A stretch of 64,000 nucleotides of DNA from positions 64,557 through 128,556 of the forward strand of contig CAYPEN010000003.1 of NCBI GenBank assembly GCA_964409875.1. The letters are read 5' to 3'. The notes beneath the pieces were generated by a model. The model did not search any database and was not told where the DNA came from. It saw only the letters and a program-made list of their open reading frames with translations. The translations under genes were made by a program, and so were the position numbers. This document shows, piece by piece, positions 10,464 to 43,867 of the stretch. Within the stretch, counting starts at the first letter, position 1, and every line of letters starts with the position of its first letter. Origin of the DNA: an uncultured Gammaproteobacteria bacterium (GTDB lineage: Bacteria; Patescibacteriota; Microgenomatia; Levybacterales; GWA1-39-11).

Positions 10464-11246
10464 TTAATATGAAGTTTTAAGTCTTTTTAGCATCACCATT
10501 TTTGCTTTTTGTGAAAGTTCATCGTCAAATTTAATTGTTATGGTCTTGCTATATTTTTTCTCATACGCTTTTTTTAGCAAATAAACAGCCAATTCCGGAT
10601 TGGAGGGCAAAATGGGTCCGTGAAGGTAGGTTCCGATAGAGTTTTTATAATGTATCCCTTCGGTTTTGTCGTGTCCGTTGTTTCCGTATCCGACAACTAC
10701 TTTTGCAAATGCTTCGTCATGGTCTTTCAGAAAAGTCCTTCCGCCATGATTCTCAAACCCTACAAAGTATGTTTTTTTGCCTTCATCCAATGATGGTTTT
10801 ATTACAACATTTCCGATAAGTCTACTTTTGGTTTTGTAACTTTCGGTATACATATCAAAAACTCCAAGTCCTTCTATTTTTGTTCCATACGCATCTTTGT
10901 AATATTTACCTAAAAATTGGAATGCTCCACAAATATAAAGTCCAGGAGTGCCATCCTCAATCATTCGCTTTAGGGTTTCACTTTTGTTTTCTAATAAATC
11001 TTTATTGACTATTTCTTGTTGTAAGTCTTGTGCCCCGCCCATAAATATCAAATCACAAGAAGTCAGAAGTTGGGAGTTTGTAGTCTGGTTAATTCGTTCA
11101 ACCTTAAACGCAATTCCATTGTCTTCTGCTATTTTTTGTAGAACAATGATGTTTCCCCGGTCTCCATATGTAGACATGAGTTCGGGATAGAGCCAGCCAA
11201 TAGTCAGTGAGCGTTTAGGGTTTTGGGTATAGGGCTTAGTTGTCAT
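10464..11246 (-). CDS. gatD: Lipid II isoglutaminyl synthase, glutaminase subunit (CobQ/GATase1-like)
   Basis: About 260-aa GATase-like protein translationally coupled (4-nt overlap) to a MurT homolog. Confidence 0.75.
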   Translation of the reverse strand: MTTKPYTQNPKRSLTIGWLYPELMSTYGDRGNIIVLQKIAEDNGIAFKVERINQTTNSQLLTSCDLIFMGGAQDLQQEIVNKDLLENKSETLKRMIEDGTPGLYICGAFQFLGKYYKDAYGTKIEGLGVFDMYTESYKTKSRLIGNVVIKPSLDEGKKTYFVGFENHGGRTFLKDHDEAFAKVVVGYGNNGHDKTEGIHYKNSIGTYLHGPILPSNPELAVYLLKKAYEKKYSKTITIKFDDELSQKAKMVMLKRLKTSY

Positions 11247-12523
11247 AAGATTGCTTTTCCAGAAATAAATTTACGAATCTCAAGCATTGCCGAATACGTG
11301 GGAAGGATAGTCAATATTTTTCCTTTCGGAGTTTGGGATAGCGCCTGCTGGTATGCTTTCTCAAATTTTTCAAAAACCTCATGAGTTATATTTGCAAAAA
11401 GCAGGCGGTTTGCCAGGTCGTAGCTTCTCTCTCCTGAAACGTATACTTTTGCGTTTTTGTTTAAAAGCATTTCAAAATCAACATCCCAAATCCAAGAAAT
11501 GTCCCTCCCATCAGGGATGCGGTCGTTGAGCAAAATCAAAATAGTTGAGGAGTTGTTTTCAATTGCGACTTTTAAAGATTCGTTAAGGCCGGTTGGGTTT
11601 TTTGAGAGCAAGACCATGACTTTTCGACCATCAATATCAATGGTTTCCTGTCTGCCGAATGCGGGTTCAAAGCTTGAAAGACTTTTTGTGGAGTCGTATG
11701 GGAGTATGCCGAATAATTTATCGGTCAAAAGAATAATAGAAGACAAATTGTAATTGTTATATGTTCCCAATAAACTCGACTTGAAAGCATATTGTTTTGC
11801 TTTAGGATTTTGAAAATCACAGTTGCTGCATTTGTAATTTCCAAGATGCGAATATGAAATCGCGGAGTAGGAAAGGGGATTATTGCACTCCGGACAAGTC
11901 GTTGAATCGACCGCGTGGGAGAGAATTTTTGACTTTTTTAGGACATTGTCCACCGTAAAAAAGACTTTATTTTTGGCGCTTGCTGCAATATGCGCTATTT
12001 GAGGGTCGTCGGCATTAGCAACAACAAGAGTTTTGTCGGAAAACTTCTTGACTGATTCTTTCCATTTTTCGGCAGTTGTATTCACTTCCCCGTATCGGTC
12101 CAATTGGTCACGGAATAGATTGAGAAGTATAATGGCATGGGGTTCAGGAATTTCCTCTAGTACAAGAGGCAAAGTGTTTTCATCAACCTCAAATATAATT
12201 GCCTTGTGTTTGAGCGTACCTCCAATTGTTACGTGGGCTACCAAAAGGGATGCAAGGCCATTGAGTAAATTTGCCCCCGCCGTATTGGTAAGCGTTGATA
12301 TGCCATTCACCTCAAGAATGTGTGCGAGTGCTTTAGTTGTGGTGGTTTTACCGTTGGTTCCAGCTATAAGAACAACTTTTACTTCCGGATTTTTCAATAG
12401 CACTTTTTTTATGAGTCTTGCATCTGTTTTGAGTGCCAAATGTCCGGGCCATGTAGAACCAGCGCGATTAAAGAGCTTTGAAAGGCGTAATACTCCTTTT
12501 CCAATTGCTAGAGAGTGATACAT
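11243..12523 (-). CDS. murT: Lipid II isoglutaminyl synthase, Mur-ligase-like subunit
   Basis: Mur ligase P-loop AGTNGKTTTT. C-terminal region carries the C4 zinc ribbon CPEC...CSNC typical of MurT (DUF1727). Confidence 0.8.
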   Translation of the reverse strand: MYHSLAIGKGVLRLSKLFNRAGSTWPGHLALKTDARLIKKVLLKNPEVKVVLIAGTNGKTTTTKALAHILEVNGISTLTNTAGANLLNGLASLLVAHVTIGGTLKHKAIIFEVDENTLPLVLEEIPEPHAIILLNLFRDQLDRYGEVNTTAEKWKESVKKFSDKTLVVANADDPQIAHIAASAKNKVFFTVDNVLKKSKILSHAVDSTTCPECNNPLSYSAISYSHLGNYKCSNCDFQNPKAKQYAFKSSLLGTYNNYNLSSIILLTDKLFGILPYDSTKSLSSFEPAFGRQETIDIDGRKVMVLLSKNPTGLNESLKVAIENNSSTILILLNDRIPDGRDISWIWDVDFEMLLNKNAKVYVSGERSYDLANRLLFANITHEVFEKFEKAYQQALSQTPKGKILTILPTYSAMLEIRKFISGKAIL

Positions 12524-19946: not shown

Positions 19947-21251
19947 CTACTCTTCAATATCATCTTCAGGGTCGTACGGTTCATCGTTCACTGGTTTTAT
20001 CAAGAAGTCCTTCATATCCCTATGTCCGATAATGACCGGGTATTTAAGGTTTGACCTGTCTACAATAGAGACAACCGTATTTATCTTCTTCCCACCCAGC
20101 GTAAATGTTGTTTTGGCAGTTGGCCGGAAGCTTTCACCGCTGGCAGATTTCACAAAAACCTTCTCGGAAAGCACCTGCATCCCGAGAAGTTCGGCGAATT
20201 TTCTGTCAACCGATGTCCTGTATGCACCTGTATCAAGCTTTGCCTTGACGGTTATCGGTTCACCGTTCCGGTAAAATGTAACCTCCTGGATGATGGTAAG
20301 TATCTTGGGGGATATAGACACTTTCTCGGAAAAGCTTTCGGTAAAAAGGTTTTTGGCAATTTCTACACCTCTTTCAGGGGTGGGAGTAATAATGTTTTCA
20401 ACGCGCTCTAAGCGAGAGCGAAGAGATGAACGGTTGGCATTTTGAATAGAAAGTCCAGGACGTGCATTAACCTCTAAAACCATTGGCCCCTCTTTGCCAT
20501 CGAAAACAATGTCAATACCGGCGTAGCCAAGCCCTGTTATTTCTTGTGCACGGGAGGCAAGAAGCAGTACCTGTTCCCAGTCGGGAATTTTAATCCCACG
20601 GGTTTTTATTTTTGTAGTGGGGATATGCGAAATTGGCTGGTCATAGAGAATCGCATTGGTCGTAATGCCCGTTCTTATATCGATTCCAAATCCTATTGCG
20701 CCCTGGTGAAGATTTGCTTTTCCGTGAGATTCTTCGGTTGAGAGCCTCATCATAGCCATAACGGGAATTTTGTTGAATGTTATGACTCTAATGTCGGGAA
20801 TGCCTACTCCCGTTAATTTCTTGAAAAATGGATGCGGATGAAGACGCTCCTCAATAAAAGCGTTATCGGGCAAAAATTTAAGTGAATAAGCTCCTTCAAG
20901 GATATCAAGAATATGGGATTCAAGTTGTTTGACAGTGTACGTTTGACCACTTGCTGTTGTTGCTACATTGTTCTCCCATTTTCTGATGGGAAGAATTCCG
21001 GATCCTGCATATCCTCTGGCTGGTTTTATGACAAAACCCCTTGTTGGAAGGTCACGCCATTCATAGTTTTTGATGGAATCTCTATCATAGAAAATTGAAA
21101 ACAAATTGGGCGTTTTTATCCCATTTTGTATCAAGACACTTTTCATCAATAATTTATCGTCAGCTATTTTTTTTGCTGCCGGTGGATTGTATCGTCTGAT
21201 GTATAAAAAATTCCGGGCGTTCATTCCCAGAATGTTTCTACTTACTGGCAT
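19947..21251 (-). CDS. ATP-grasp (RimK/alpha-L-glutamate ligase-like) protein fused to a C-terminal retropepsin-like aspartic protease domain (DUF785-like)
   Basis: N-terminal ~300-aa ATP-grasp (RimK-related). C-terminal KAKLDTGAYRTSVD carries the DTGA retropepsin signature, normally found in a separate partner protein. Confidence 0.7.
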   Translation of the reverse strand: MPVSRNILGMNARNFLYIRRYNPPAAKKIADDKLLMKSVLIQNGIKTPNLFSIFYDRDSIKNYEWRDLPTRGFVIKPARGYAGSGILPIRKWENNVATTASGQTYTVKQLESHILDILEGAYSLKFLPDNAFIEERLHPHPFFKKLTGVGIPDIRVITFNKIPVMAMMRLSTEESHGKANLHQGAIGFGIDIRTGITTNAILYDQPISHIPTTKIKTRGIKIPDWEQVLLLASRAQEITGLGYAGIDIVFDGKEGPMVLEVNARPGLSIQNANRSSLRSRLERVENIITPTPERGVEIAKNLFTESFSEKVSISPKILTIIQEVTFYRNGEPITVKAKLDTGAYRTSVDRKFAELLGMQVLSEKVFVKSASGESFRPTAKTTFTLGGKKINTVVSIVDRSNLKYPVIIGHRDMKDFLIKPVNDEPYDPEDDIEE

Positions 21252-22158
21252 GGCGGATTATAGAGGAAAACCTGAAATATTCCATAAGTCGTAATCCAAA
21301 GTAGCGGCCAACAATAATATTAAGAGGAATAAGTACCAGAATGAATTCAGGATAAAGAAGAATGGTGTTTCTTAGGTGGGTCGAGGAGAGAAGTAAAAAT
21401 CCCAGGATTCCAATAGCAAAAGTTACCATTGAAATTATTATCATTTCCTGTGCACTTCTTTCTTGCTGAACTGATATTATTTGTTCTGACAAAAGAATCA
21501 GAAGTAGCACCGGGAAAATGGAAAGCTGCTTTACGACGAGAATGCCTGCCATTGCGCTGACAGTCAGCGTTAAGAAAAGAAAGATGGAAACTATGAACAT
21601 TGAAAACGCCATTTTAGGCAACTGCATAATGCGGACTTTTTTGAGGAGTATGCGTGCGATAGTTGATGAGAAAATAATTGTTGCCAATAGGATAAGCCCT
21701 GCTGTTATTCCGGTTGAAAGCAGTGTGATGGAGAGTGCAACAGGTACGAGCATGCCGATGCTGGGAAGACCGATGACATGCCGTATAAAAGCAATAATTG
21801 TTGCAAGCATCGGGAGAAGCAGGATAAGGATTACTGTTCTTGATGGAACACCTGCCTTGACCGAGGCTTGGACAAGGAACGCCAAAATATTCCATCCATT
21901 GAGCTTGTCTGCAGGGCGCTGCTTGAAGAGAGCAAGCGCCTGCTCATCTTCCGGTCCTTCTGGCCGCGTGACATCCTGCTGTTGAATTTTTGCAATTTCT
22001 GCTGCTTCTTTTGCGGAGGCTGAAGCATTTGCTGAATCTGTCGCTGTTGCGACCGAAGGTGGATTTGGGAGCACATTGAATATATCTTGCGCCTGAACAT
22101 TTTTGACGAAGAAAGCAAAAAGAATAATAAAAAAGAGGCTTAAGAGAGTAAATTTCAT
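21238..22158 (-). CDS. Signal-peptide plus multi-TM (about 7 TM) membrane protein, partner of the ATP-grasp/protease gene
   Basis: Signal peptide MKFTLLSLFFIILFAFFVKNVQA, then a low-complexity extracellular segment and multiple TM helices. Overlaps the downstream ATP-grasp gene by 14 nt. Confidence 0.6.
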   Translation of the reverse strand: MKFTLLSLFFIILFAFFVKNVQAQDIFNVLPNPPSVATATDSANASASAKEAAEIAKIQQQDVTRPEGPEDEQALALFKQRPADKLNGWNILAFLVQASVKAGVPSRTVILILLLPMLATIIAFIRHVIGLPSIGMLVPVALSITLLSTGITAGLILLATIIFSSTIARILLKKVRIMQLPKMAFSMFIVSIFLFLTLTVSAMAGILVVKQLSIFPVLLLILLSEQIISVQQERSAQEMIIISMVTFAIGILGFLLLSSTHLRNTILLYPEFILVLIPLNIIVGRYFGLRLMEYFRFSSIIRHASK

Positions 22159-22195
22159 ACGTTTTATAGTATCAAATAAGCAAGTTGAGTTCAAC

Positions 22196-24813: not shown

Positions 24814-25365
24814 GTGTCACGAAGAAAAGTTAACCTAATAGCCTCAATTTTATTATTCCTCGCCTTTTTTGGTTATTCATCCTACAAACAATATTATCCT
24901 TCAAAAAAAGTTCTTTCACTTCAGGAACAAAAGCAAACAACGACGCAAACACAGGTAGTAAAAATAATTGACGGAGATACTATTGAAGTGCTGATTGATG
25001 GGAAAAAGGAAAAAGTACGCGTTCTCGGAATAAATACCCCCGAAACCGTCGACCCTAGGCGTCCTGTTGAATGTTTTGGCAAAGAAGCTTCAGATAAGGC
25101 AAAAAGCCTGTTGTCTAACCAATCGGTTCGTTTGGAGTCTGACCCGACACAGAATGACCGCGATAAATACGGCAGGCTCTTGCGGTATGTTTTTCTCTCT
25201 GACGGTACCGATTATGGACTCACCATGATAAAAGATGGATATGCGTATGAATATACATACGAAATTCCGTATAAATTCCAAAAAGAATATAAAAAAGCCC
25301 AAAGTGAGGCAGAAAATAGACAGGAGGGATTATGGTCTAGTGCTACGTGTAAAGGGAATGAATAG
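24814..25365 (+). CDS. Thermonuclease (staphylococcal nuclease-like), membrane-anchored
   Basis: SNase fold motifs (VIDGDTIEV...RVLGINTPE...RLLRYVF...DGYAYEY) and an N-terminal TM helix. Confidence 0.85.
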   Translation: MSRRKVNLIASILLFLAFFGYSSYKQYYPSKKVLSLQEQKQTTTQTQVVKIIDGDTIEVLIDGKKEKVRVLGINTPETVDPRRPVECFGKEASDKAKSLLSNQSVRLESDPTQNDRDKYGRLLRYVFLSDGTDYGLTMIKDGYAYEYTYEIPYKFQKEYKKAQSEAENRQEGLWSSATCKGNE

Positions 25366-25367
25366 TG

Positions 25368-25592
25368 CTATTCTGAAAGTAACACAGCTTCGTATCCGGT
25401 TTTTTTGACAGTTTCAAGAAGAGTATTTGTGTCGACTTTTCCATCTTCAAATTCAACCTCAGTTATCTGTTTTGCGTAGCTTGTTTGGGCTTTTTTTACT
25501 CCCTCTACATCTTCAAGATCAAAATCTATGTTCATCGCACATGATGAACAGTGCATGCCCGTAATTTTCAATTTCTTTGTCACATTGCTCAT
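25368..25592 (-). CDS. copZ: Copper chaperone CopZ (HMA domain)
   Basis: GMHCSSC metal-binding motif; 74 aa. Confidence 0.85.
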   Translation of the reverse strand: MSNVTKKLKITGMHCSSCAMNIDFDLEDVEGVKKAQTSYAKQITEVEFEDGKVDTNTLLETVKKTGYEAVLLSE

Positions 25593-26749
25593 ATTACTTC
25601 AATCACCCCCCGGTACATCCCCATTGCGCAGGTGAATGGGATTCTCCCTGCCTCTGTTGGTGTAAAAGTTATGGTTTGAGTTTCGTTTGCGGCAAGATTG
25701 CGGGCAATGCCAAGAGAGGGAATTCGGAAAGCAGATGAACAGCTGTAAGCATCAATACTCTTAAGGGTAAGGGTAACCGTTTCACCTTTTTTGACACGGA
25801 TATAATTTGGGGAATAGCCCGAAGCGGTGATTTCAATAGTTGGACTTTGATTAATCGGAATTGTCTGTTGTACGTTTATCTGATTTGAAGAGGGAAGTTT
25901 TATCTTTTCACCAATTGCCTGCAAAGTTATCGGTGAGCCAAAAGCGGTAAGCGACCCATTAATTGCGCTAATTCCAAGATAGATAACAATAACTGCCGCA
26001 ATTTTGAAAAATTTTGTCTTGAATGACTCACCCAAAAGTGAAGTTACTGCTCCAATTCCAAAAAAGAGAGGTGTAGTCCCTAAAATAAATGCTGCCATGA
26101 TGAGACCTCCCATAAATACATTAGAGCTACTGATAGCCAATGCTTCCATAGCAAGGGTCGTTCCACAGGGGATAAATATGGTCATTGCCCCAAGCAAAGC
26201 CGGCGCAAAGAAGTCTTTGGACTTTGATTGGTTGCGGACAAGCCGGGTTAAGAACCGTGGAGGCTGGATAATGACGTACCGAAAAATAGGATGGATATTA
26301 AGTAAATTCATGGCAACAAGCACCATATAGACACCGGCTGCAAGTTGCATGAAGGCTTGAACTTTCCCGCCGATATTTAATGCCCCGCCAAAAGCCCCCA
26401 ATACCAATCCTAGAGCGGTATAGGCAACCAGTTTTGAGGCAAGAAATGCACCGGTTGCGATGAGAGCATGTTTGCCGACTTTTGAAGTGCTTGTTTCCTC
26501 CCGTGCAGCAATTATCGAGGCTAAAAGTCCACCCTGAACTGCAAGGCACGTGAGTCCTCCAACGGTTAGTCCGGTGATAAATATGACAAAAAGATTGATA
26601 TTTCCCGCTTTTGGTACAGGTACGGAAGGGAGAGTAGTTTGCGAGGGAGAATTTTGTAGGGTCGCAAGCATGAAAAGTAGATAGCCAATGAGTACAACGG
26701 CGGCAGCAAATACCCACAAAAGCATTTTGAGTGTTGATTTGTTTTCCAT
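25589..26749 (-). CDS. Polytopic membrane permease-like protein with C-terminal cupredoxin-like domain
   Basis: About 8 TM helices (TauE/DsbD-like fold). The C-terminal ~100 aa resembles the downstream cupredoxin_1 domain (FTCAMGMYRGVIEV compared with [14 protein letters not shown]). Confidence 0.6.
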   Translation of the reverse strand: MENKSTLKMLLWVFAAAVVLIGYLLFMLATLQNSPSQTTLPSVPVPKAGNINLFVIFITGLTVGGLTCLAVQGGLLASIIAAREETSTSKVGKHALIATGAFLASKLVAYTALGLVLGAFGGALNIGGKVQAFMQLAAGVYMVLVAMNLLNIHPIFRYVIIQPPRFLTRLVRNQSKSKDFFAPALLGAMTIFIPCGTTLAMEALAISSSNVFMGGLIMAAFILGTTPLFFGIGAVTSLLGESFKTKFFKIAAVIVIYLGISAINGSLTAFGSPITLQAIGEKIKLPSSNQINVQQTIPINQSPTIEITASGYSPNYIRVKKGETVTLTLKSIDAYSCSSAFRIPSLGIARNLAANETQTITFTPTEAGRIPFTCAMGMYRGVIEVI

Positions 26750-26751
26750 AA

Positions 26752-28989
26752 TTATGTTCTTGAAAGCTTGAGCCTTTTTAAGAGCAGTGAATTACTCACA
26801 ACTGAAATAGAGCTTGAGGCCATCGCCGCTGAGGCGAATATCGGATTCAGCAACAGTCCAAAGAATGGATAAAGGGCTCCCATAGCAACTGGTATCAATA
26901 TAATATTATAGCCAAAAGCCCAGAAGAGGTTAAGCTTTATAGTTCTCATCGTCTTTTTTGAAAGTTTTATGGCAGATGCGACGGAACGAAGATCGCGGTT
27001 AATAAGTGTAATGCCGGCTGTTTCTATCGCAACATCAGTACCACTTCCCATCGCAATACCGATATCTGCAGCAGCAAGCGCAGGCGCGTCGTTTATCCCG
27101 TCTCCCACCATTGCAACAACTTTTCCTTCGTTTTGAATTTTTCTGACTTCCTGCTCTTTCTCTTCCGGCAGAACTTCCGACAGAACTCTTTTTATCCCCA
27201 GGCTTTGGGCGATAGCCTCAGCTGTTCTTTTGTTGTCTCCCGTCATCATCACTACCTCAATACCTTTTTTCGTAAGCTCGTTTATTCCTTCTCTAGCGCT
27301 TTCTTTAACGGTATCCATAACAGCAATAAGTCCAAGAAGAGTTGTTTCGAATGCCAAAAACATAACTGTTTTTCCCTCTCTTTCTAAATTTTCGACATTA
27401 TCCAGATAGTTTGCGACTTTGACGCCCATACTTTCCATCAGTTTTCTATTACCAAAAAACACTTGTTTCCCGCTTATGACTCCTTCTACCCCGTGTCCCG
27501 GAATTGCTTTGAATTTTTCAACCGGAAGAGAGGGGATATTGTCACTTTCTGCCTTTTTCACAATGGCCTCAGCAAGGGAGTGCTCAGACCCTTTCTCAAG
27601 AGACGAGGCAACGCGAAGAACTGTGTCGGGTGGTGCATCGTGCGTGGGGATGATGTCTGTAACCTCAGGCTTACCGTTTGTGAGGGTTCCTGTTTTGTCA
27701 AAAATGATGGCTTTTACTTTGTGTGCTATTTCAAGGCTTTGTGCGTCTTTGATGAGTATTCCGTTCTGCGCCCCAATACCTGTCCCCACCATGATAGCGG
27801 TGGGTGTTGCAAGACCCATTGCACACGGGCAAGCAATGATAAGTACAGCAACCGTATTAAGAAGGGCATAGAGAAAAGCCGGAGAAGGACCGAATACGTA
27901 CCAAACGGCAAACGTTGCAATAGAAAGCATGATTACGATAGGTACAAAATAGGAGGATATGGTATCGGCAACTCTTTGGATAGGCGCTTTTGAACCTTGA
28001 GCATTTTCAACCAGAGTTATTATTTGTGCCAACATTGTTTGTCCTCCTACTTTTTCGGCTCTATAGGTAAAAGTACCGGATTTATTAAGAGTTGCCCCTA
28101 CAACGTTGTCCCCCTGTGCTTTGTCAACAGGTATACTTTCTCCTGTTATCATAGACTCATCAACCGCCGACTCGCCTTCCAGTATAACTCCATCAACCGG
28201 TATTTTTTCTCCCGGCCTGACTCTTACCACGTCCCCGATGATAACTTCGCTTATGGGAATATCAATTTCCTTGTCATCACGCATGACCCGTGCAGTTTTT
28301 GCTTGAAGTGAGAGGAGTTTTTTGATGGCCTCCGACGTACCAGCCTTTGCTTTCGCTTCAAAAAATCTCCCCAGAAGTATTAGGGCTATTACAATTGTAG
28401 CAACATCAAAGTAGGGCATCGGCTCTATCCCGACAGCGCTTATGACTTTTGGCATCAACGTAACTAATACCGAATATGAAAATGCAGCGGTCGTACCGAT
28501 CGCAACAAGAGTATCCATATTTGCGCTTCTATGGCGAAGAGAGGGTATGGTTGCCTTATAAAAGGTAAGCCCTGGCCAGAATTGGACGATAGAGGCTAGG
28601 GCAAGTTGCAGATAAAAATTCTTAAGGAAAAAAGGTGCAAAATCAATAAGCCCAGGGAAGCTTCCCCACAGTATAAGTAGTCCTATCGTAAGACTCACGA
28701 TAACTTTTAGGCGGAGTGACTTCAGTTCCCTTGCCTTCTCTTCTTGCTCTTTTTTCTCATCAACTTTTTCCCCTTCAATCATTGCTGTGTATCCGACTTG
28801 GGCGACCGCTGACTCCATTTGTTTTGGAGTGCAGGCAGAATCGTCATAGTTGACGGTTGCTTTCTCGGTTGCGAGGTTAACAGTTGCCGATTCGACGCCG
28901 CTAACTTTTGTTAATGCCCGCTCGAGCACCCTGACGCAGGACGCGCAGTGCATGCCTTTTATTGGAAATGTTTTGGTGACTTGAGCCAT
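26752..28989 (-). CDS. copA: Copper-translocating P1B-type ATPase
   Basis: N-terminal HMA (GMHCASC), CPC motif in TM6, and DKTGTLT phosphorylation site. Confidence 0.95.
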
Positions 28990-28990
28990 A

Positions 28991-29368
28991 TCACTTTATG
29001 ATTATCTTCCCGTGATACATATTCATGCCGCACGAGTATTTGAATTCTCCTTTCTTTTGGGGTGTTATCTCAACGGTAACCGTTTCATTCAGAGGAAGAT
29101 ATTTCCTTATCTTCAAATCGCCGAGCACTACTTCCTCAAGGCAACCGCTCGAATCTTTTCTGATGAAATTTAGTTTCGTAGTTTTACCCTTCGGTATGAC
29201 GACCGCTTCAGGGTTATATCCTCCCTCAACAATAATATCAACAGACCCATTAGCCACAACTTCTCTTTGGTCTTTCATGAGAAAAAACCAGTGGACAAAG
29301 CCTATTCCTAAAATACTTCCTACCAAAACTAAGATTTTATCTATTGGCATATTAGTCACCGCATTCAA
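28991..29368 (-). CDS. Cupredoxin-like (cupredoxin_1) domain protein, membrane-anchored
   Basis: 125 aa with an N-terminal TM helix and the C-terminal motif SCGMNMYHG. Confidence 0.7.
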
Positions 29369-29888
29369 TACTTTCTTTTTCTTTTTTTTCTATATATTGT
29401 TTGCTAACCGCGTCTTTTTCATGGGTTGTGGAATTACTACCAAGAAGTATGACCATGCTTTCATAAGGAGTAATCCTGGTGTTCTGGAAATCCTTTACCT
29501 CTTTGCCATTTACATATGCCTTTGCCTTTGAGTAGTCAATGGGGTAGTGGATATTGGTAAAAAGGTCGCGCCAGTAAGCTTGTTCACGCTCGACGTGCAC
29601 GAGGTCACCAACCTGGTCATGAAGATGCGCCTTTTCGGCTTGTATATCCTCATCACTGTGATTTCCCTTCACATCATCGCAAGGTTTTACTCTCATATAC
29701 TTAAAATCTGAAAAGTCTATTTTTTTGTCGTTTTGGAAGACGACGAAGCCTGCGTGATAGTGGATTTCTTTTGGTGTAGTGAGAAATTTGTATCCAAAAA
29801 ATCCCCCAATAACTATTCCTATCAGGAGTAACGTCCCAAAAACTGCAATAATATTCCTTTTTTTTAATAACCCCATTCTTTGTACCAT
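29352..29888 (-). CDS. Hypothetical membrane-anchored His-rich protein in the copper operon
   Basis: N-terminal TM helix and several His-containing motifs. No family recognised. Confidence 0.5.
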   Translation of the reverse strand: MVQRMGLLKKRNIIAVFGTLLLIGIVIGGFFGYKFLTTPKEIHYHAGFVVFQNDKKIDFSDFKYMRVKPCDDVKGNHSDEDIQAEKAHLHDQVGDLVHVEREQAYWRDLFTNIHYPIDYSKAKAYVNGKEVKDFQNTRITPYESMVILLGSNSTTHEKDAVSKQYIEKKEKESIECGD

Positions 29889-30505
29889 AGGCGCATTTGA
29901 TTTATCTCCTTTGTCTGTGAATCAATAATGTTTTGGGCAAGCTTTTTCATTTCCGGTCGTATTGTTCCGTTCTTAAGCATTGTTGCCATCATAACTGCCA
30001 TTTGGTGATGCGGAATCATCTCCTCTATAAATTCTTTATCAAAGTTTTCTGCCGATTTGAGTGACTCTGCGTCGATATCGCTTCCCATCATGCCCATGTG
30101 CATAGATCCGTTTCCTTGCATCATTCCATGCGTATCCATCACATCATTGTCTTCCGGTGGCTGCTTCCCGAACCATTCCTCATACCATCCTTTCATTTGT
30201 TCAATTTCTTTTGATTGGGCAGTGATGATATTTTGGGCGAGAGTTTTGATTTCACTGTGAGTTGCTTTTTCAAGAGCTGTTGTACTCATTGTAATTGCAT
30301 CTTTGTGATGAGGGATCATCTGTTCTATAAAATGGCTATCGAGTGCATCGGAATTCGTAATTCTATTTTCCTGTACAGTATTTTTTCCCCACATCATTTG
30401 TCCAAGGGAAGAATAACGACCGGAGGGTGGGGTTGGCAAAATAAGCCAAACAGCAAGGCCTCCAAGAATTGCGCCAATCACCCCATATGTTAGTTTTTTA
30501 TCCAT
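29864..30505 (-). CDS. DUF305 domain protein (copper-resistance associated)
   Basis: Two DUF305 repeats (IEQMIPHHKDAI... and IEEMIPHHQMAV...). Confidence 0.8.
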   Translation of the reverse strand: MDKKLTYGVIGAILGGLAVWLILPTPPSGRYSSLGQMMWGKNTVQENRITNSDALDSHFIEQMIPHHKDAITMSTTALEKATHSEIKTLAQNIITAQSKEIEQMKGWYEEWFGKQPPEDNDVMDTHGMMQGNGSMHMGMMGSDIDAESLKSAENFDKEFIEEMIPHHQMAVMMATMLKNGTIRPEMKKLAQNIIDSQTKEINQMRLWYKEWGY

Positions 30506-30507
30506 AT

Positions 30508-30783
30508 TTACTTATTGGTTCTTTTAAAAAGTGTTACGAGTTCTTCGGTTGCTTTTTCACTTTCACCGTTATGGAATTGGTGTGCAACGTGAGTTGAGAG
30601 ATGACGTTCCAAAAGAACCGTGTCAAGGCTTTTTAAGGAATTTTGTATAGCAAGGCTTTGGTTGAGGACGTCGACGCAATACACGTCATCCGTTATCATC
30701 TTTGAAAGTCCTTCCAGCTGGCCTTTGATGATGTTGAGGCGCTTCTGGGCTTTAACTTTGCCGTCTTCGTAGTGAGATTTCAT
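30508..30783 (-). CDS. csoR: CsoR/RcnR family metal-sensing transcriptional repressor
   Basis: 91-aa DUF156 fold with Cys-His-Cys ligand positions (YCVDV...HLSTHV). Confidence 0.8.
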   Translation of the reverse strand: MKSHYEDGKVKAQKRLNIIKGQLEGLSKMITDDVYCVDVLNQSLAIQNSLKSLDTVLLERHLSTHVAHQFHNGESEKATEELVTLFKRTNK

Positions 30784-30971: not shown

Positions 30972-31514
30972 TTAAATTGACTCTAATTTTTCTTTAGAAT
31001 CTCTTTCAAGTTTTTCTCTTTGCTTCTCTGTTAATCCCATGCTTTTTGCAAAAAAATCATTTAAGCCTTCGTATACGATTTCTAATAACTGTAGCGTCTC
31101 TAGTTCTTTTGCGGGATTATTTCTATATTCCCTAATTTTGTCTTGATATGCACTCGGATGAGAAAAAATAACTCTTAAATCATTTAATTTGTACATTTTC
31201 CCAATTAATGCAGATTCTAAGAGATCTGATTCCTGGACTGACTTAACCTTCTTCGCAAAATCAGTGCTTGCGGCTAGTTGAGTAAATCTTTGCCTAAACT
31301 CTAATCGTTCTTCATCTGAAATAGACGTGTTATTAATACTGCTCAAAAGGTGGTTTGCCAAAATTATTTCTAAAGAAACTTCAGTTCTTGCATGAACGTG
31401 AAAAATCTTATGTCTAATCTCCTTTGTTTCTTCATCAGTATAAAGTGGGTCAATATCTTCCCAATTCTGGAGTTTGTTTAGCAGTTCTTGAATTTGCTCT
31501 TCTAGAGGGACCAT
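30972..31514 (-). CDS. Hypothetical protein (possible HEPN-like Rx4H motif)
   Basis: 180 aa, alpha-helical. Contains an RHKIFH motif. No family recognised. Confidence 0.5.
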   Translation of the reverse strand: MVPLEEQIQELLNKLQNWEDIDPLYTDEETKEIRHKIFHVHARTEVSLEIILANHLLSSINNTSISDEERLEFRQRFTQLAASTDFAKKVKSVQESDLLESALIGKMYKLNDLRVIFSHPSAYQDKIREYRNNPAKELETLQLLEIVYEGLNDFFAKSMGLTEKQREKLERDSKEKLESI

Positions 31515-34202: not shown

Positions 34203-34333
34203 TTTACTTCACCTCCTTTGTCTTACAAAACCATAACTATCCTACATAAAAGTTTTGTTGGTGGAACGTAATAATTGAATGAAAGCGCTAGATTTATTGA
34301 AAATAAATAATATAGGTCTATAATGTTAGTAAA

Positions 34334-36034
34334 ATGAAAGAATTTGTTACAGGACAAGTCGAAAAACAACACGAGCAAGCATTTGGTAGAGTAGTTTCGC
34401 TTCAGGAAAAGCGAGGGATAGCTCCCATTCATGATCCATTCAAAAACGAATGGCAGGCTCTTTTGCCGGAAAAGCAATATGGGGATGTAACGCTTCCTTC
34501 TGCCAATGCTGCTTTTATTGCCTCATATAAAGATGCGCTTGCAAAGGGTAAATTTGAAGAGTTTAAAGAAAACATCCCTGAGTCAGATTTTTCGGGTATT
34601 TATAGGGTGAGGGCAGTTAACCCGACAAATGAGAAAGACAAAATTGCTGCGGCAAATTATTCGCCTGAGTCAATAGATAGTCTTGAAAAACGCCTGGCTG
34701 AATTTTTGAGGAAAATTGAAGGGTCGAATATAGCACCGGAGTATAAAGCCGAGTATAGAAAGAGAATTCAAAACGGCGAGATGCAGCATTTAAAAATGGC
34801 AAGAAACCTTGGTGCTGTTGAGTACACGATAGAACAAAAAATCCCTTCCGATTGGAGTAATTTTGTAGATTTAGAAAAAACGCTACAGCAAAAGACAATA
34901 GTACTTCCGTATGAGGATTTAGCACAAAAACTTTTGGAAAAAAGCAAAAAGTCAAAAGAGCATCCCGTAAGAACAATGAAGGATGCGTTAAACTTTTGGG
35001 AATTGACTGATGCTGAAAAGCAGGAAGTTGGATATGATAATGTGACGGATGATACGAAGACTCTTTCCAATAAGCAAACGGTAGCGTTGCTTAATATTGT
35101 GCTTAAGCGTTATAAGCTATTTGACTGGAAAAGCGTTGCAGACCCCGCAGTTACTGCAATAAATGATTCGTCACGTGAAAAAGAAATGCAGGTGCCTTCA
35201 GACCGGGAATTTGACAGTGCGGATGCGATATTTATCCCCGGACATGAGACCGTCCATTCAGTATCGGTTGAAAACGGGCAGAGGCAAGAATTTGGACTTT
35301 TGTGGGAAGGAGTTTTTGATTATTTGAAAACCGAAGAGGGGAAAGCATCTGCAAATGAACTAATATTAGGTCTTTCAAACATCGACTCTCGCCAAGTTAA
35401 GCTTTATGGAAGGTATATGGCAGTTGCTATGGCACTTAAAGCAGATGTAAAAGACGGAAAGCCGCAACCGCGCTTTTCTACACAGAAGATTTACGACACA
35501 CTGAAGGATTACGGAGTGCGCGAGTTGGATGCGAAAGACATAGTGTGGAGGATAATGCGTGGCACAACCTTAAGGCACAAAGGGGTGATGATTCCAGTTG
35601 ATGATGGAAAAAGGAATATCGTAGAAATTCCTTCGGCAGAATGTTTTGTAAAGGACGCTTTATATTTTGAAGGACAAAGACAAGTCTTTGAGTGGTTGAG
35701 GGCGAGAATGCCGGTTAAAGCTGGACACAGGGCATCCGTCACAACAAAAACCGAAGACTTCTCTGATAAAACCCTTGCTCGAGTAGGGCTTAAGGCGCAT
35801 GAAATGGAAGAGGGTAAGGTAGTGAATTTAAAGTACCGCGAGGCGAAAAAACAATACCCGTCATGGGTTAAAAAAGGAAGAGAAACACTTTTAACGCTTA
35901 ATAATTTGACCGCCGCAGGCAAAATCAGGCTTGATATGTTAACGGAAAGTTCTTTTTGGGAGCAGAATCTGAAGTTTGGCAGGCAGAACGGACAAATAGA
36001 TTTACAAGATATTTTTACTCCCTCAAAAACTTAA
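34334..36034 (+). CDS. Large orphan soluble protein (566 aa) with an HETVH (HExxH) motif
   Basis: No signal peptide and no TM helices. Highly charged. No family recognised. Confidence 0.6.
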   Translation: MKEFVTGQVEKQHEQAFGRVVSLQEKRGIAPIHDPFKNEWQALLPEKQYGDVTLPSANAAFIASYKDALAKGKFEEFKENIPESDFSGIYRVRAVNPTNEKDKIAAANYSPESIDSLEKRLAEFLRKIEGSNIAPEYKAEYRKRIQNGEMQHLKMARNLGAVEYTIEQKIPSDWSNFVDLEKTLQQKTIVLPYEDLAQKLLEKSKKSKEHPVRTMKDALNFWELTDAEKQEVGYDNVTDDTKTLSNKQTVALLNIVLKRYKLFDWKSVADPAVTAINDSSREKEMQVPSDREFDSADAIFIPGHETVHSVSVENGQRQEFGLLWEGVFDYLKTEEGKASANELILGLSNIDSRQVKLYGRYMAVAMALKADVKDGKPQPRFSTQKIYDTLKDYGVRELDAKDIVWRIMRGTTLRHKGVMIPVDDGKRNIVEIPSAECFVKDALYFEGQRQVFEWLRARMPVKAGHRASVTTKTEDFSDKTLARVGLKAHEMEEGKVVNLKYREAKKQYPSWVKKGRETLLTLNNLTAAGKIRLDMLTESSFWEQNLKFGRQNGQIDLQDIFTPSKT

Positions 36035-37392: not shown

Positions 37393-38547
37393 TTGTTTCC
37401 TGTTATGAAAAAACTTCTTGTCACAGTATTATTGTGCTTTTTTGCTTTCATGCCTGTTATGCGTGCAGAGGCATTTTTTGATCCTCTTGCAAGACCAAAT
37501 AATTTCCATGGTATCCACATTCTTTTCGCGTCTGAGCTTGAAGATGCAGCAAAGCTCGTGAATTCCCAAAATGGTGAATGGGGGTATGTAACTATTCCTA
37601 TACAAACTGGTGACAAAGACCTGGATAAATGGCAGAAATTTATGGATGAATGTAAAAGGCTCAAGCTCATTCCGATAGTGCGTCTTTCAACAGAAGCAGA
37701 CCCGCAGAACACGGCTGTGTGGAGAAAGCCAACCGCAACAGATATTCTTGATTTTGCAAATTTTCTCAATTCTCTTAATTGGCCAATTGAGAACCGGTAT
37801 GTAATTGTTTTTAACGAAATGAATAGGTTCGACGAATGGGGGGGAGAGGCTCCTGATCCAGCTGCATATACCGACTTTCTCTCATATGCGTCGCAAACAT
37901 TCAGAGAACAAAATCCCAATTTCTTTATCATAATGGGCGGACTTGATAATGCTGCCCCAAATGATGGCGTCAAATACACGGACAATTACGTATATCTTGA
38001 AAAGATGTATCAACGCGACCCTGAAATATTCAAGAAAATAGACGGTTTTGCATCACACTCGTACCCAAACCCCGGATTTGTTGCGCCCCCTCTTCAGAAC
38101 AAACTGGAAGGAATAACGACGTATCAATATGAGTATTTGTATATCAACTCAAAAAGCGACCACAAAGTACCTGTCTTTATAACAGAGACAGGGTGGGATA
38201 GTAAAAAATTACCTGAAAGTGTCATAGCTAAATACTATACCAGTGCATATGAAAATTTTTGGAACAAAGATAAGGATAAAATTGTGGCAATAACTCCATT
38301 TCTTTTAAGTTCGCAAGGGGGAGCATTTGATTCATTTTCTTTTGTTAAAAATGGGAAAAGGACTCAATACTATATGGCTTCGGAGAAAATGGAAAAAACG
38401 AAAGGCCAACCTCTCATACAGAAGGTGAAAGGAATTGCCATAAACAAAGTAACACAGTTAAAAAAGCTTGTTACAAGAAGGTCTACAAATACAAATGATA
38501 AACTCACCAAGGAATTGGTTGTGCAATTTGTACAGGTTTTCTTTTAA
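37393..38547 (+). CDS. Secreted glycoside-hydrolase-like protein (clan GH-A-like TIM barrel)
   Basis: Signal peptide. FNEMNR and ITETGW resemble the clan GH-A acid/base and nucleophile motifs. Confidence 0.55.
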   Translation: MFPVMKKLLVTVLLCFFAFMPVMRAEAFFDPLARPNNFHGIHILFASELEDAAKLVNSQNGEWGYVTIPIQTGDKDLDKWQKFMDECKRLKLIPIVRLSTEADPQNTAVWRKPTATDILDFANFLNSLNWPIENRYVIVFNEMNRFDEWGGEAPDPAAYTDFLSYASQTFREQNPNFFIIMGGLDNAAPNDGVKYTDNYVYLEKMYQRDPEIFKKIDGFASHSYPNPGFVAPPLQNKLEGITTYQYEYLYINSKSDHKVPVFITETGWDSKKLPESVIAKYYTSAYENFWNKDKDKIVAITPFLLSSQGGAFDSFSFVKNGKRTQYYMASEKMEKTKGQPLIQKVKGIAINKVTQLKKLVTRRSTNTNDKLTKELVVQFVQVFF

Positions 38548-38575
38548 TTATTCTTGCTCTTTGCTAATATTAAAC

Positions 38576-39013
38576 GCAATGTCTTTATTCTCCAAACCAA
38601 CCCCTAAAAAACGGTCAGCAAAGAAGAAGAGTAGTGGTCTTTCATGGCAGAAAGATGAAACTATTCAAGAAGAGATGGCTCAAATTGTAGAGTCATTAGG
38701 CCTTTCGTACATCAATGAAAAAAGGGTTTTCTGCTACAGAACTTCCGGGTCAAAGGCTAGAGCATATGCCCGAATTTGGTCTTTTCCGAAAATTTTTCAG
38801 GATGTTTTGAATATCGAACCTGCGTATGTAATGGAAATTATTTCGGAAAAATTTGACAAACTCGATAAGGACAATAGGAAAAAAGTTATAATTCACGAAT
38901 TACTGCACATCCCGAAAAATTTTTCAGGAAGCCTTTTACCTCACAAATATGGTTATACAAAAATAGAGAAAGAGGTAGAGGTATTATTCAAAAAGTATAT
39001 GAACAGCAAATGA
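38576..39013 (+). CDS. Putative zinc metallopeptidase (SprT/DUF45-like)
   Basis: HExxH motif (IIHELLHI) with a basic N-terminal tail. Confidence 0.55.
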   Translation, partial: AMSLFSKPTPKKRSAKKKSSGLSWQKDETIQEEMAQIVESLGLSYINEKRVFCYRTSGSKARAYARIWSFPKIFQDVLNIEPAYVMEIISEKFDKLDKDNRKKVIIHELLHIPKNFSGSLLPHKYGYTKIEKEVEVLFKKYMNSK

Positions 39014-42937: not shown

Positions 42938-43867
42938 ATGGATGAGATTAAAAATTTAGATAAAATTGTACTAGAAGCTTTGGATTTTTTTGTTAAAAAT
43001 CCACCGTCTTCTTTTGATATTTCCACATATAATCTTCCATTCGTAGTCGGTTCGGGAAATGCGTACAACACCGGTACCATACTTTTCTCACAAAAGGCTG
43101 CAATATTTGCAGATGAGAGCAACTTTCGAAATGTTATTGATGCATATAAAAAAGCAGTTGAAAGTAGAATGATAACGCAGGCTGTAGTAATTTCGGCTTC
43201 CGGTGGGAAAGATAGTGTTTGGGAGTTAGAGCTTGCAAAACAAAACGGTCTTCAAACAACATTGCTTACAACAAAATCAGAATCGGATGCTGCAAAAATT
43301 GCAGATAAGCTTTTTGTATTTAAGTCAATTGCGGAGCCCTATACTTATAACACTTCCACCTACATGGGCATGATAATGGCAGCAAGTCGGGAGAACCCCG
43401 TTGTAATAAAAGACTATCTATTATCTTTGGAATTTCCAGAAAACTTCAGCAACTATTCAGCGTATTCGTTTGTATTGCCGGATAAATTTATGCCCATCTG
43501 CCCGATGCTAGAGATAAAAAAGAGCGAACTATTTGGACCCAAATTATCTCTTCGGGCATTTAGCCAGGGACATGCAAGGCATGCAAAATTTGTAATAAGA
43601 GATAAAGGCGAACTTGTAATCTCTATCGGTCAAAAAAACGACTACTTTGGAGATACAGAAAGTAGATGGGACATTTTTCCGACCGACGATTTTAATTTTG
43701 CAGGAATAATGGCACTTACTTATTATATTGTAGGCAAAATCCAGGCATCCAAACCGCAATATTTCAAAGAAAACATAAAGAATTATGTCTCCGATTATGG
43801 TCCCAAAGCGTACGGAGAGACTACAAAACCGTTTGAACTGATTGTGTCAGGGACAGAAAGCAATTAG
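42938..43867 (+). CDS. Hypothetical protein (possible SIS-like sugar-phosphate binding fold)
   Basis: 309 aa. FVVGSGNAYNTG and ISASGGKDS could be SIS-like glycine loops. Lies within the sugar-phosphate gene cluster. Confidence 0.5.
   Translation: MDEIKNLDKIVLEALDFFVKNPPSSFDISTYNLPFVVGSGNAYNTGTILFSQKAAIFADESNFRNVIDAYKKAVESRMITQAVVISASGGKDSVWELELAKQNGLQTTLLTTKSESDAAKIADKLFVFKSIAEPYTYNTSTYMGMIMAASRENPVVIKDYLLSLEFPENFSNYSAYSFVLPDKFMPICPMLEIKKSELFGPKLSLRAFSQGHARHAKFVIRDKGELVISIGQKNDYFGDTESRWDIFPTDDFNFAGIMALTYYIVGKIQASKPQYFKENIKNYVSDYGPKAYGETTKPFELIVSGTESN

Follow-up and report, generated by a model that had tools for sequence, protein, structure and literature searches.

Gene and protein at the locus

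The DNA analyzed here is a stretch of 64,000 nucleotides of contig CAYPEN010000003.1 (GenBank assembly GCA_964409875.1, positions 64,557 to 128,556 of the forward strand), which we refer to as the window. Near its middle lies a gene for a protein of 566 amino acids (Table 1), which we assign below to the MATCAP family (formerly DUF1704) and call the MATCAP-like gene. A preliminary description, made from the letters of the sequence, had presented this open reading frame as a highly charged orphan without signal peptide, transmembrane segment or recognisable domain, and had proposed that its single HETVH motif could define a zincin-like active site. Both the open reading frame and its sole HExxH motif were recovered, with HETVH occupying residues 304–308 within IFIPGHETVHSV. 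From the composition of the protein, 0.013 HExxH motifs would be expected by chance in a sequence of this length; the stronger argument that the motif is not a chance occurrence is that both of its histidines are retained in all 43 relatives. The N-terminus is polar and no hydrophobic segment was found (the maximum Kyte-Doolittle mean over 19 residues is 0.73, well under transmembrane values), in agreement with the earlier statement that signal peptide and transmembrane segment are both missing. Because neither is present, the protein is expected to be cytoplasmic. Aspartate, glutamate, lysine and arginine make up 30.7% of the residues, so that the protein is charged as described, though not extremely, its net charge being +2. 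None of the PADLOC defence models matched the protein or three of its neighbours.

Table 1. Positions in the window of the MATCAP-like gene, its promoter-like site and the segments and motifs of its product.
Feature	Positions	Strand	Remarks
Promoter-like site, TTGAAA-16 nucleotides-TATAAT	34297..34324	+	11 of 12 consensus positions; ends 9 nucleotides 5' of the ATG; putative function
MATCAP-family coding sequence	34334..36034	+	ATG to stop, stop codon included in the end coordinate; 566 amino acids; PF08014
N-terminal extension, about 108 residues	34334..34657	+	Helical; specific to the long subfamily; outside the local alignment with canonical DUF1704, which begins at residue 109
Region homologous to canonical MATCAP/DUF1704, residues 109–541	34658..35956	+	Local and global hhalign
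HETVH	35243..35257	+	H304 and H308, predicted metal ligands; E305, predicted catalytic base; on model helix 295–316
Ser311	35264..35266	+	Site (second His + 3) of the Arg that is invariant in canonical members
TEEG motif	35330..35341	+	T333-E334-E335-G336; E335, predicted third metal ligand; on model helix 331–344
RIMRG (family RxxRG)	35549..35563	+	R406 and R409, candidate binders of the substrate C-terminal carboxylate or of acidic residues
KDALYFEG (family KDxxYxxG)	35651..35674	+	Y444, candidate transition-state-stabilising residue

The protein is a divergent and enlarged member of the MATCAP family

The protein matches the Pfam family PF08014 with 44.2 bits (E 1.7e-11; gathering score 27), residues 236–416 aligning to profile positions 110–281. 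A word-indexed search of 5.8 billion clusters retrieved eight relatives, all eight assigned to PF08014, and an exhaustive HMMER search of 1.84 billion representatives retrieved 88 clusters. About 50 of these 88 are 550 to 620 amino acids long with E values below 1e-13 (the long clade); they are followed, after a clear gap, by canonical DUF1704 proteins of 340 to 390 amino acids with E values of 1e-7 to 1e-3. The two groups are also separate in a neighbour-joining tree of the catalytic core, built without bootstrap.

The long clade and the canonical proteins were then represented by profiles of 43 (A2) and 26 (A3) sequences, respectively. In hhalign these aligned locally with a probability of 100% and an E value of 6.8e-40 over 272 columns (residues 109–458 against canonical positions 45–323), and globally from residue 51 to residue 541 against canonical positions 1–378, reaching the common C-terminal GK(I) motif at residues 529–531. 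Because the local and global alignments span it, the whole canonical domain is contained in the 566-amino acid protein. Among PDB sequences, human MATCAP (7z5g) was reached by the long-clade profile at E 4.1e-5 and by the canonical profile at E 4.3e-31. A single-sequence PDB search returned only ribosomal protein uS8 (E 0.003 or weaker, residues 401–492), which was judged spurious because these residues form the RxxRG-to-KDxxY segment of the family with a β-hairpin insertion of the subfamily. Altogether, the score above the curated Pfam threshold and the relatives retrieved leave no room for the view that the gene is an unassignable orphan without a recognisable domain. A standard Pfam scan suffices to assign it, and its product is a divergent, enlarged MATCAP/DUF1704 member from a long subfamily that is rare and whose proteins have about 560 amino acids.

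The predicted metal ligands and the surrounding motifs are conserved

The human enzymes of the family need a metal for their carboxypeptidase activity and belong to the gluzincin clan (PMC10499314; PMC13522474), and mutagenesis of human TMCP1/MATCAP, the E316A substitution included, has identified E281 and E316 as required for activity (PMC10499314). The HETVH of the 566-amino acid protein aligns to the HEIGTH of human MATCAP, with H304 at the position of H280, E305 at that of E281 and H308 at that of H285. In the long-clade alignment H304 and H308 are present in all 43 sequences and E305 in 42. The TEEG motif aligns to human TEEGLA, which places E335 at the position of E316; E335 and G336 are both invariant (43/43), and the spacing of 27 residues between the second histidine and this glutamate is identical in canonical members. 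The alignment of E305 and E335 with the two glutamates required in the human enzyme, together with the invariance of the ligands, bears out the suggestion of a zincin-like active site, and E335 is the probable third zinc ligand that the preliminary description had proposed to look for downstream. Profile and structure searches both led to human MATCAP, and the sole confident fold match is this enzyme, not a non-enzymatic family, the outcome that would have spoken against that suggestion.

Two further motifs are conserved on the C-terminal side. R406 and R409 of RxxRG are invariant in the 43 sequences, and the counterpart of this motif reads RvkRG in canonical members and RAKRG in human MATCAP. 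D441 and Y444 of KDxxYxxG, which aligns to human KDQVYLDG, are likewise invariant in the long clade, as is the corresponding Y340 in canonical proteins. G410, K440 and G447 of the same two motifs are also invariant or nearly so.

The length of the first motif and the residue at position 311 are more variable. The long clade mostly carries HExxH, its two basal sequences carry HExxxH, and each of the two lengths also turns up sporadically in either clade; the rare long clade illustrates that the unusual HExxxH of the family readily shortens to the classical HExxH with the third ligand unmoved. Three residues after the second histidine, an arginine is found in 26 of 26 canonical sequences and in human MATCAP (HYLR). 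In the long clade (n = 43), this position is occupied by arginine in 28 sequences, serine in 6, glycine in 6 and other residues in 3.

The predicted structure places HETVH and E335 as in a gluzincin

An AlphaFold2 model built from the 43-sequence alignment has a predicted local distance difference test (pLDDT) score of 94.9 and a predicted template modelling score of 0.93. In the model, a small β-sheet (residues 266–287) is followed by the helix that bears HETVH and then by the long helix that bears E335, an order that corresponds to the gluzincin arrangement. When the model was compared with the PDB by Foldseek, the two top matches were chains of human apo MATCAP (7z5g; probability 1.00, E 2.7e-4). 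The additional length of the protein lies in the N-terminal extension, which is conserved inside the long subfamily, and in subfamily insertions at about residues 175–237, 370–380, 413–435 and 459–519, of which the one at 413–435 is predicted to form a β-hairpin. Residues 1–240 modelled alone reached a pLDDT of 78.7 and gave no Foldseek match better than E 3, and the idea that they form a separate identifiable domain was dropped. A search of viral structures (BFVD) returned nothing significant, only local matches of 73 to 80 residues to SprT-like zincin cores. The DUF885 family (PF05960) gave no Pfam match and only a faint structural one (3iuk, Foldseek E 0.057, template modelling (TM) score 0.30), and the protein is outside that family.

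Proposed activity and alternative explanations

From the profile alignments, the model and the residue conservation, we are highly confident that the protein has the membership, the fold and the intact metal site of the MATCAP family. We consider it likely that it is a cytoplasmic, catalytically competent MATCAP/DUF1704 gluzincin, most likely a metallocarboxypeptidase; carboxypeptidase specificity as such, which we propose from the analogy with the human proteins, is somewhat favoured. In the mechanism that we envisage, H304, H308 and E335 would hold one divalent metal, for which Zn2+ is the likeliest candidate; Co2+ and Mn2+, both of them reported for the human enzymes, are also possible. E305 would activate a metal-bound water for attack on the peptide bond, and Y444 together with R406 and R409 would complete the active site. 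By analogy with human MATCAP/TMCP1 and TMCP2, the enzyme may shorten the tail of a protein or peptide by one or a few residues at the C-terminus. For a Patescibacteria-like host, a tubulin substrate is implausible.

Several observations weigh against this reading. The HExxH of the protein is one residue shorter than the HExxxH of the characterised and canonical members, and the invariant canonical arginine is absent, with Ser311 in its place. The Foldseek superposition on MATCAP is modest (TM score 0.29 when normalised by the query and 0.47 when normalised by the target), and the NCBIfam equivalog threshold for the QEGLA proteins (TIGR02421) is missed widely, with 26.2 bits against 338.65. The approximately 200 extra residues could alter substrate access. 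In the literature searched, we found no paper on the function of bacterial DUF1704/QEGLA proteins, nor any demonstrated activity or substrate for a bacterial PF08014 protein.

Some of these points would also fit an active gluzincin that is not a tail carboxypeptidase. It could then be an oligopeptidase or endopeptidase, or an amidase whose substrate is a small peptide-like metabolite or a peptide of the cell wall, with its active site enclosed by the added helical segments. The approximately 200 extra residues indeed pack confidently on the catalytic domain, as judged from the pLDDT of the full-length model compared with that of residues 1–240 alone, the arginine at the second histidine + 3 is lost, and bacterial family members with a known substrate are lacking. 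Moreover, the next full-length fold matches after MATCAP are to the two-lobed DUF885 proteins 3iuk (probability 0.82 and 0.75) and 3u24 (0.28). These DUF885 matches are weak, however (E 0.06 and a TM score of 0.30 for the best), whereas RxxRG and KDxxY, which the protein has in common with the carboxypeptidase MATCAP, are invariant, and genes for cell-wall synthesis or peptide transport are not consistently adjacent at the loci examined. We regard such a non-carboxypeptidase activity as unlikely. The serine that replaces the canonical arginine at position 311, in this protein and in its closest relatives, might also suggest a catalytically dead relative of the peptidase family with a structural or regulatory role. 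This is extremely improbable: in a clade whose members have diverged to about 25% identity, all three metal ligands, the catalytic glutamate and the other motifs show no change or almost none, a pattern expected only if there is selection for catalysis.

A possible link to ATP-grasp ligases

A more specific version of the carboxypeptidase explanation names the class of substrate. The protein might be paired with an ATP-grasp amino-acid ligase of the RloC/RimK type and trim away C-terminal residues added by the ligase, for example glutamates, in a cycle like the one that tubulin tyrosine ligase and MATCAP form in eukaryotes. Ligases of the RimK type extend C-termini with glutamates, and tails of this kind are cut by RimB and RloA (PMC12239564). 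In the Rlo system, RloA is a retropepsin, RloB a seven-transmembrane protein and RloC an ATP-grasp protein, and the system is related to the RimK/RimB poly-glutamate tail system (PMC12239564); the human TMCPs trim acidic tails as well (PMC10499314). In other bacteria, single proteins of about 790 amino acids join a MATCAP domain to an ATPgrasp_ST (TIGR02291-like) and a retropepsin-like domain (P0063, P0095 and P0085), and in one locus the gene for such a fusion lies directly 3' of an RloB-like seven-transmembrane gene (L010, 3-3158). Taken with the activities described for the Rlo, RimK/RimB and TMCP proteins, these fusions suggest that the MATCAP family trims C-terminal tails made by ligases. 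The window itself has a seven-transmembrane gene and an ATP-grasp-retropepsin gene of the type seen in L010, with no MATCAP domain fused (19947-22194), and over 417 residues its ATP-grasp-retropepsin protein shares 39% identity with the N-terminal two-thirds of P0063.

Other evidence argues against extending this link to the long clade. The MATCAP domains of the fusions fall in the canonical HExxxH clade and outside the long one, and the two loci of the window are 13 kb apart on opposite strands with unrelated genes between them. No ATP-grasp or seven-transmembrane gene is found near the other long-clade genes (L002–L009), and the Gammaproteobacterial QEGLA genes examined stand alone. The distributions differ too: close homologues of the ATP-grasp gene of the window number in the thousands, and PF08014 is absent from the top 120 of them (at least 57% identity), whereas the long MATCAP-like gene has only about eight relatives in the same database. 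Finally, a relative with an 87%-identical ATP-grasp gene lacks a MATCAP-like gene in the syntenic stretch. We consider it quite unlikely that the protein is the partner of such a ligase. The form of this idea that is tied to the window, in which the long-clade enzyme would erase a C-terminal tail code of bacteria by trimming residues that the ligase encoded at 19947-21251 places on acidic tails of proteins, seems very unlikely. If it held, the tail-code eraser would be the prokaryotic counterpart, and possibly the evolutionary source, of the tubulin tyrosine ligase/MATCAP cycle. As Rosetta-stone evidence, the ATP-grasp/retropepsin/MATCAP fusions weakly support a ligase link for the family, and nothing ties the long clade to a ligase. 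They suggest where the bacterial substrates of the family and the origin of the eukaryotic detyrosinase may be sought.

Several further observations concern these ligase-type genes. The seven-transmembrane protein of the window (21238-22194, minus strand) has 318 amino acids and matches PF14402 and the seven-transmembrane part of RloB, a protein mostly confined to Proteobacteria (PMC12239564). Its gene overlaps that of the ATP-grasp protein (19947-21251, minus strand), which has 434 amino acids and consists of an ATPgrasp_ST/TIGR02291 "alpha-L-glutamate ligase-like" part (297 bits, cut-off 314) and a C-terminal RloA/RimB-like retropepsin. This fused form is very common in the lineage of the window, with thousands of homologues. 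The proteins composed of ATP-grasp, retropepsin-like and canonical MATCAP domains carry ligase and carboxypeptidase on one chain, recalling the pair of tubulin tyrosine ligase and MATCAP, and no paper describing such triple-domain proteins was found in the literature. A three-gene operon of QEGLA, RimK-like ligase and seven-transmembrane genes, as might be expected in Gammaproteobacteria, was not seen in the two annotated replicons inspected. At L004, 7767-8858, and at L010, 3147-4163, a convergent queA gene lies directly downstream of a stand-alone long-clade gene (P0006) and of an ATP-grasp-MATCAP fusion gene (P0095), respectively.

Transcription, neighbourhood and distribution

A promoter-like site lies immediately upstream of the MATCAP-like gene (Table 1). 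Such sites are not in excess in the region overall (3 found, 4.9 expected). The downstream dus gene is convergent, its stop lying 5 nucleotides from the MATCAP-like gene. From the promoter-like site and the convergent dus, the gene looks like a single-gene transcription unit, in which the leader would be very short or absent.

No conserved operon partner was detected, the neighbours of the MATCAP-like gene being different at every locus examined; only a relative with 59% identity retains the convergent dus and the downstream genes. A related genome whose flanking proteins are 64 to 88% identical is syntenic with the window up to a gene for a mechanosensitive channel, and its next 4.5 kb contain no bPH, DUF488, MATCAP-like or dus gene. 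Scans of genomes and of metagenomes with the A1 profile gave two loci each. The long MATCAP-like gene is thus rare, and its distribution is patchy. Both GTDB-representative genomes that carry a relative bear the submitter label "uncultured Gammaproteobacteria", and the product of a gene neighbouring the MATCAP-like gene shares 89% identity with a protein of a metagenome-assembled genome of Candidatus Levybacteria (Patescibacteria, Microgenomates group), which points to a Levybacteria-like source for the window.

Two variants were seen among the relatives. P0008 has 312 amino acids and corresponds to the C-terminal half of the long form, from just before HExxH; its gene is preceded by a family-less open reading frame of 301 amino acids with a gap of 260 nucleotides between them, and the two (L005, 6836-8939; L006, 779-2882) could be a split or frameshifted gene. 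In Vibrio sp. HDW18 (NZ_CP049914.1; L011, 4062-6053), a "QEGLA motif protein" has about 663 amino acids, compared with 360 in the canonical protein.

Other genes of the window

The window has the gene content of an ordinary bacterial chromosome (atpA, atpB, dnaE, gatA, gatB, murT, gatD, PolX, pyrG, bipA and greA), and also contains uvrA, uvrB, eno, six tRNA genes and a copper-resistance cluster. The copper cluster (25589-30783, minus strand) encodes a DsbD_2-cupredoxin fusion, a 745-amino acid HMA P-type ATPase, a cupredoxin, a 178-amino acid protein without assignment, a DUF305 protein and a CsoR-type repressor. A close relative (L013) lacks both this cluster and the SNase gene (24814-25365) in the syntenic stretch and has purA there instead. 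The MurT/GatD pair for iso-glutamine amidation of peptidoglycan (10464-12523, minus strand) lies beside an M48 peptidase, LemA and a PolX-PHP polymerase, and this region is consistent with a monoderm or Patescibacteria-like envelope.

Downstream of the MATCAP-like gene, at 38468-39013 (plus strand), a 181-amino acid protein of PF18894 ("putative phage metallopeptidase") has an HExxH motif of its own (IIHELLHIP). Its gene overlaps the end of the gene at 37393-38547, which encodes a family-less protein of 384 amino acids with a hydrophobic N-terminus, and a short holA lies just downstream; the trio is kept in the contig of the 59%-identical relative. Directly 3' of uvrA, a 612-amino acid protein with a transglutaminase core (PF01841; 54614-56452, plus strand) has no NCBIfam match. 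Two further proteins, of 180 amino acids (30972-31514, minus strand) and 309 amino acids (42938-43867, plus strand), match no Pfam family, and the first of these has no PADLOC match either.

Comparison with known systems

The closest solved structures are those of human MATCAP/TMCP1 (KIAA0895L; PDB 7z5g, 7z5h and 7z6s), which together with TMCP2 (KIAA0895) constitutes the tubulin tail metallocarboxypeptidases. These proteins have PF08014 in common with the 566-amino acid protein, and human MATCAP, its best solved fold match, also has the catalytic glutamate, the third ligand, RxxRG, KDxxYxxG and the gluzincin clan in common with it. The two differ in that identity is only about 15%, HExxH in the bacterial protein stands against HExxxH in the human one, Ser311 takes the place of the arginine of the human HYLR, and the bacterial protein is extended by about 108 residues at the N-terminus and carries four insertions. 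The disordered basic N-terminus with which human MATCAP binds microtubules is absent. Since the host bacterium has no tubulin-based microtubules, the substrate must differ from that of the human enzyme.

The canonical DUF1704 proteins, annotated as "flavohemoglobin expression-modulating QEGLA motif protein" (TIGR02421) and about 360 amino acids long, are homologous over their entire domain and have the ligand set and the motifs in common with the protein studied here. The latter is about 200 residues longer and belongs to a separate clade with mostly HExxH, in contrast to the canonical HExxxH. Canonical members are found in replicons of Gammaproteobacteria and Rhizobiales, whereas the long form occurs here in Patescibacteria-like contexts. 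The bacterial DUF885 proteins (PF05960; 3iuk and 3u24) are HExxH proteins of similar length, about 550 amino acids, with a weak full-length fold likeness (3iuk_B, probability 0.82), but the TM score is just 0.30 and there is no Pfam sequence match. The ATPgrasp_ST-retropepsin-MATCAP fusions and the Rlo-like operon are connected to the protein through PF08014, and the genome of the window has the seven-transmembrane and ATP-grasp-retropepsin genes in unfused form; the MATCAP-like protein of the window, however, is neither fused nor adjacent to these ligase and seven-transmembrane genes and belongs to the other clade.

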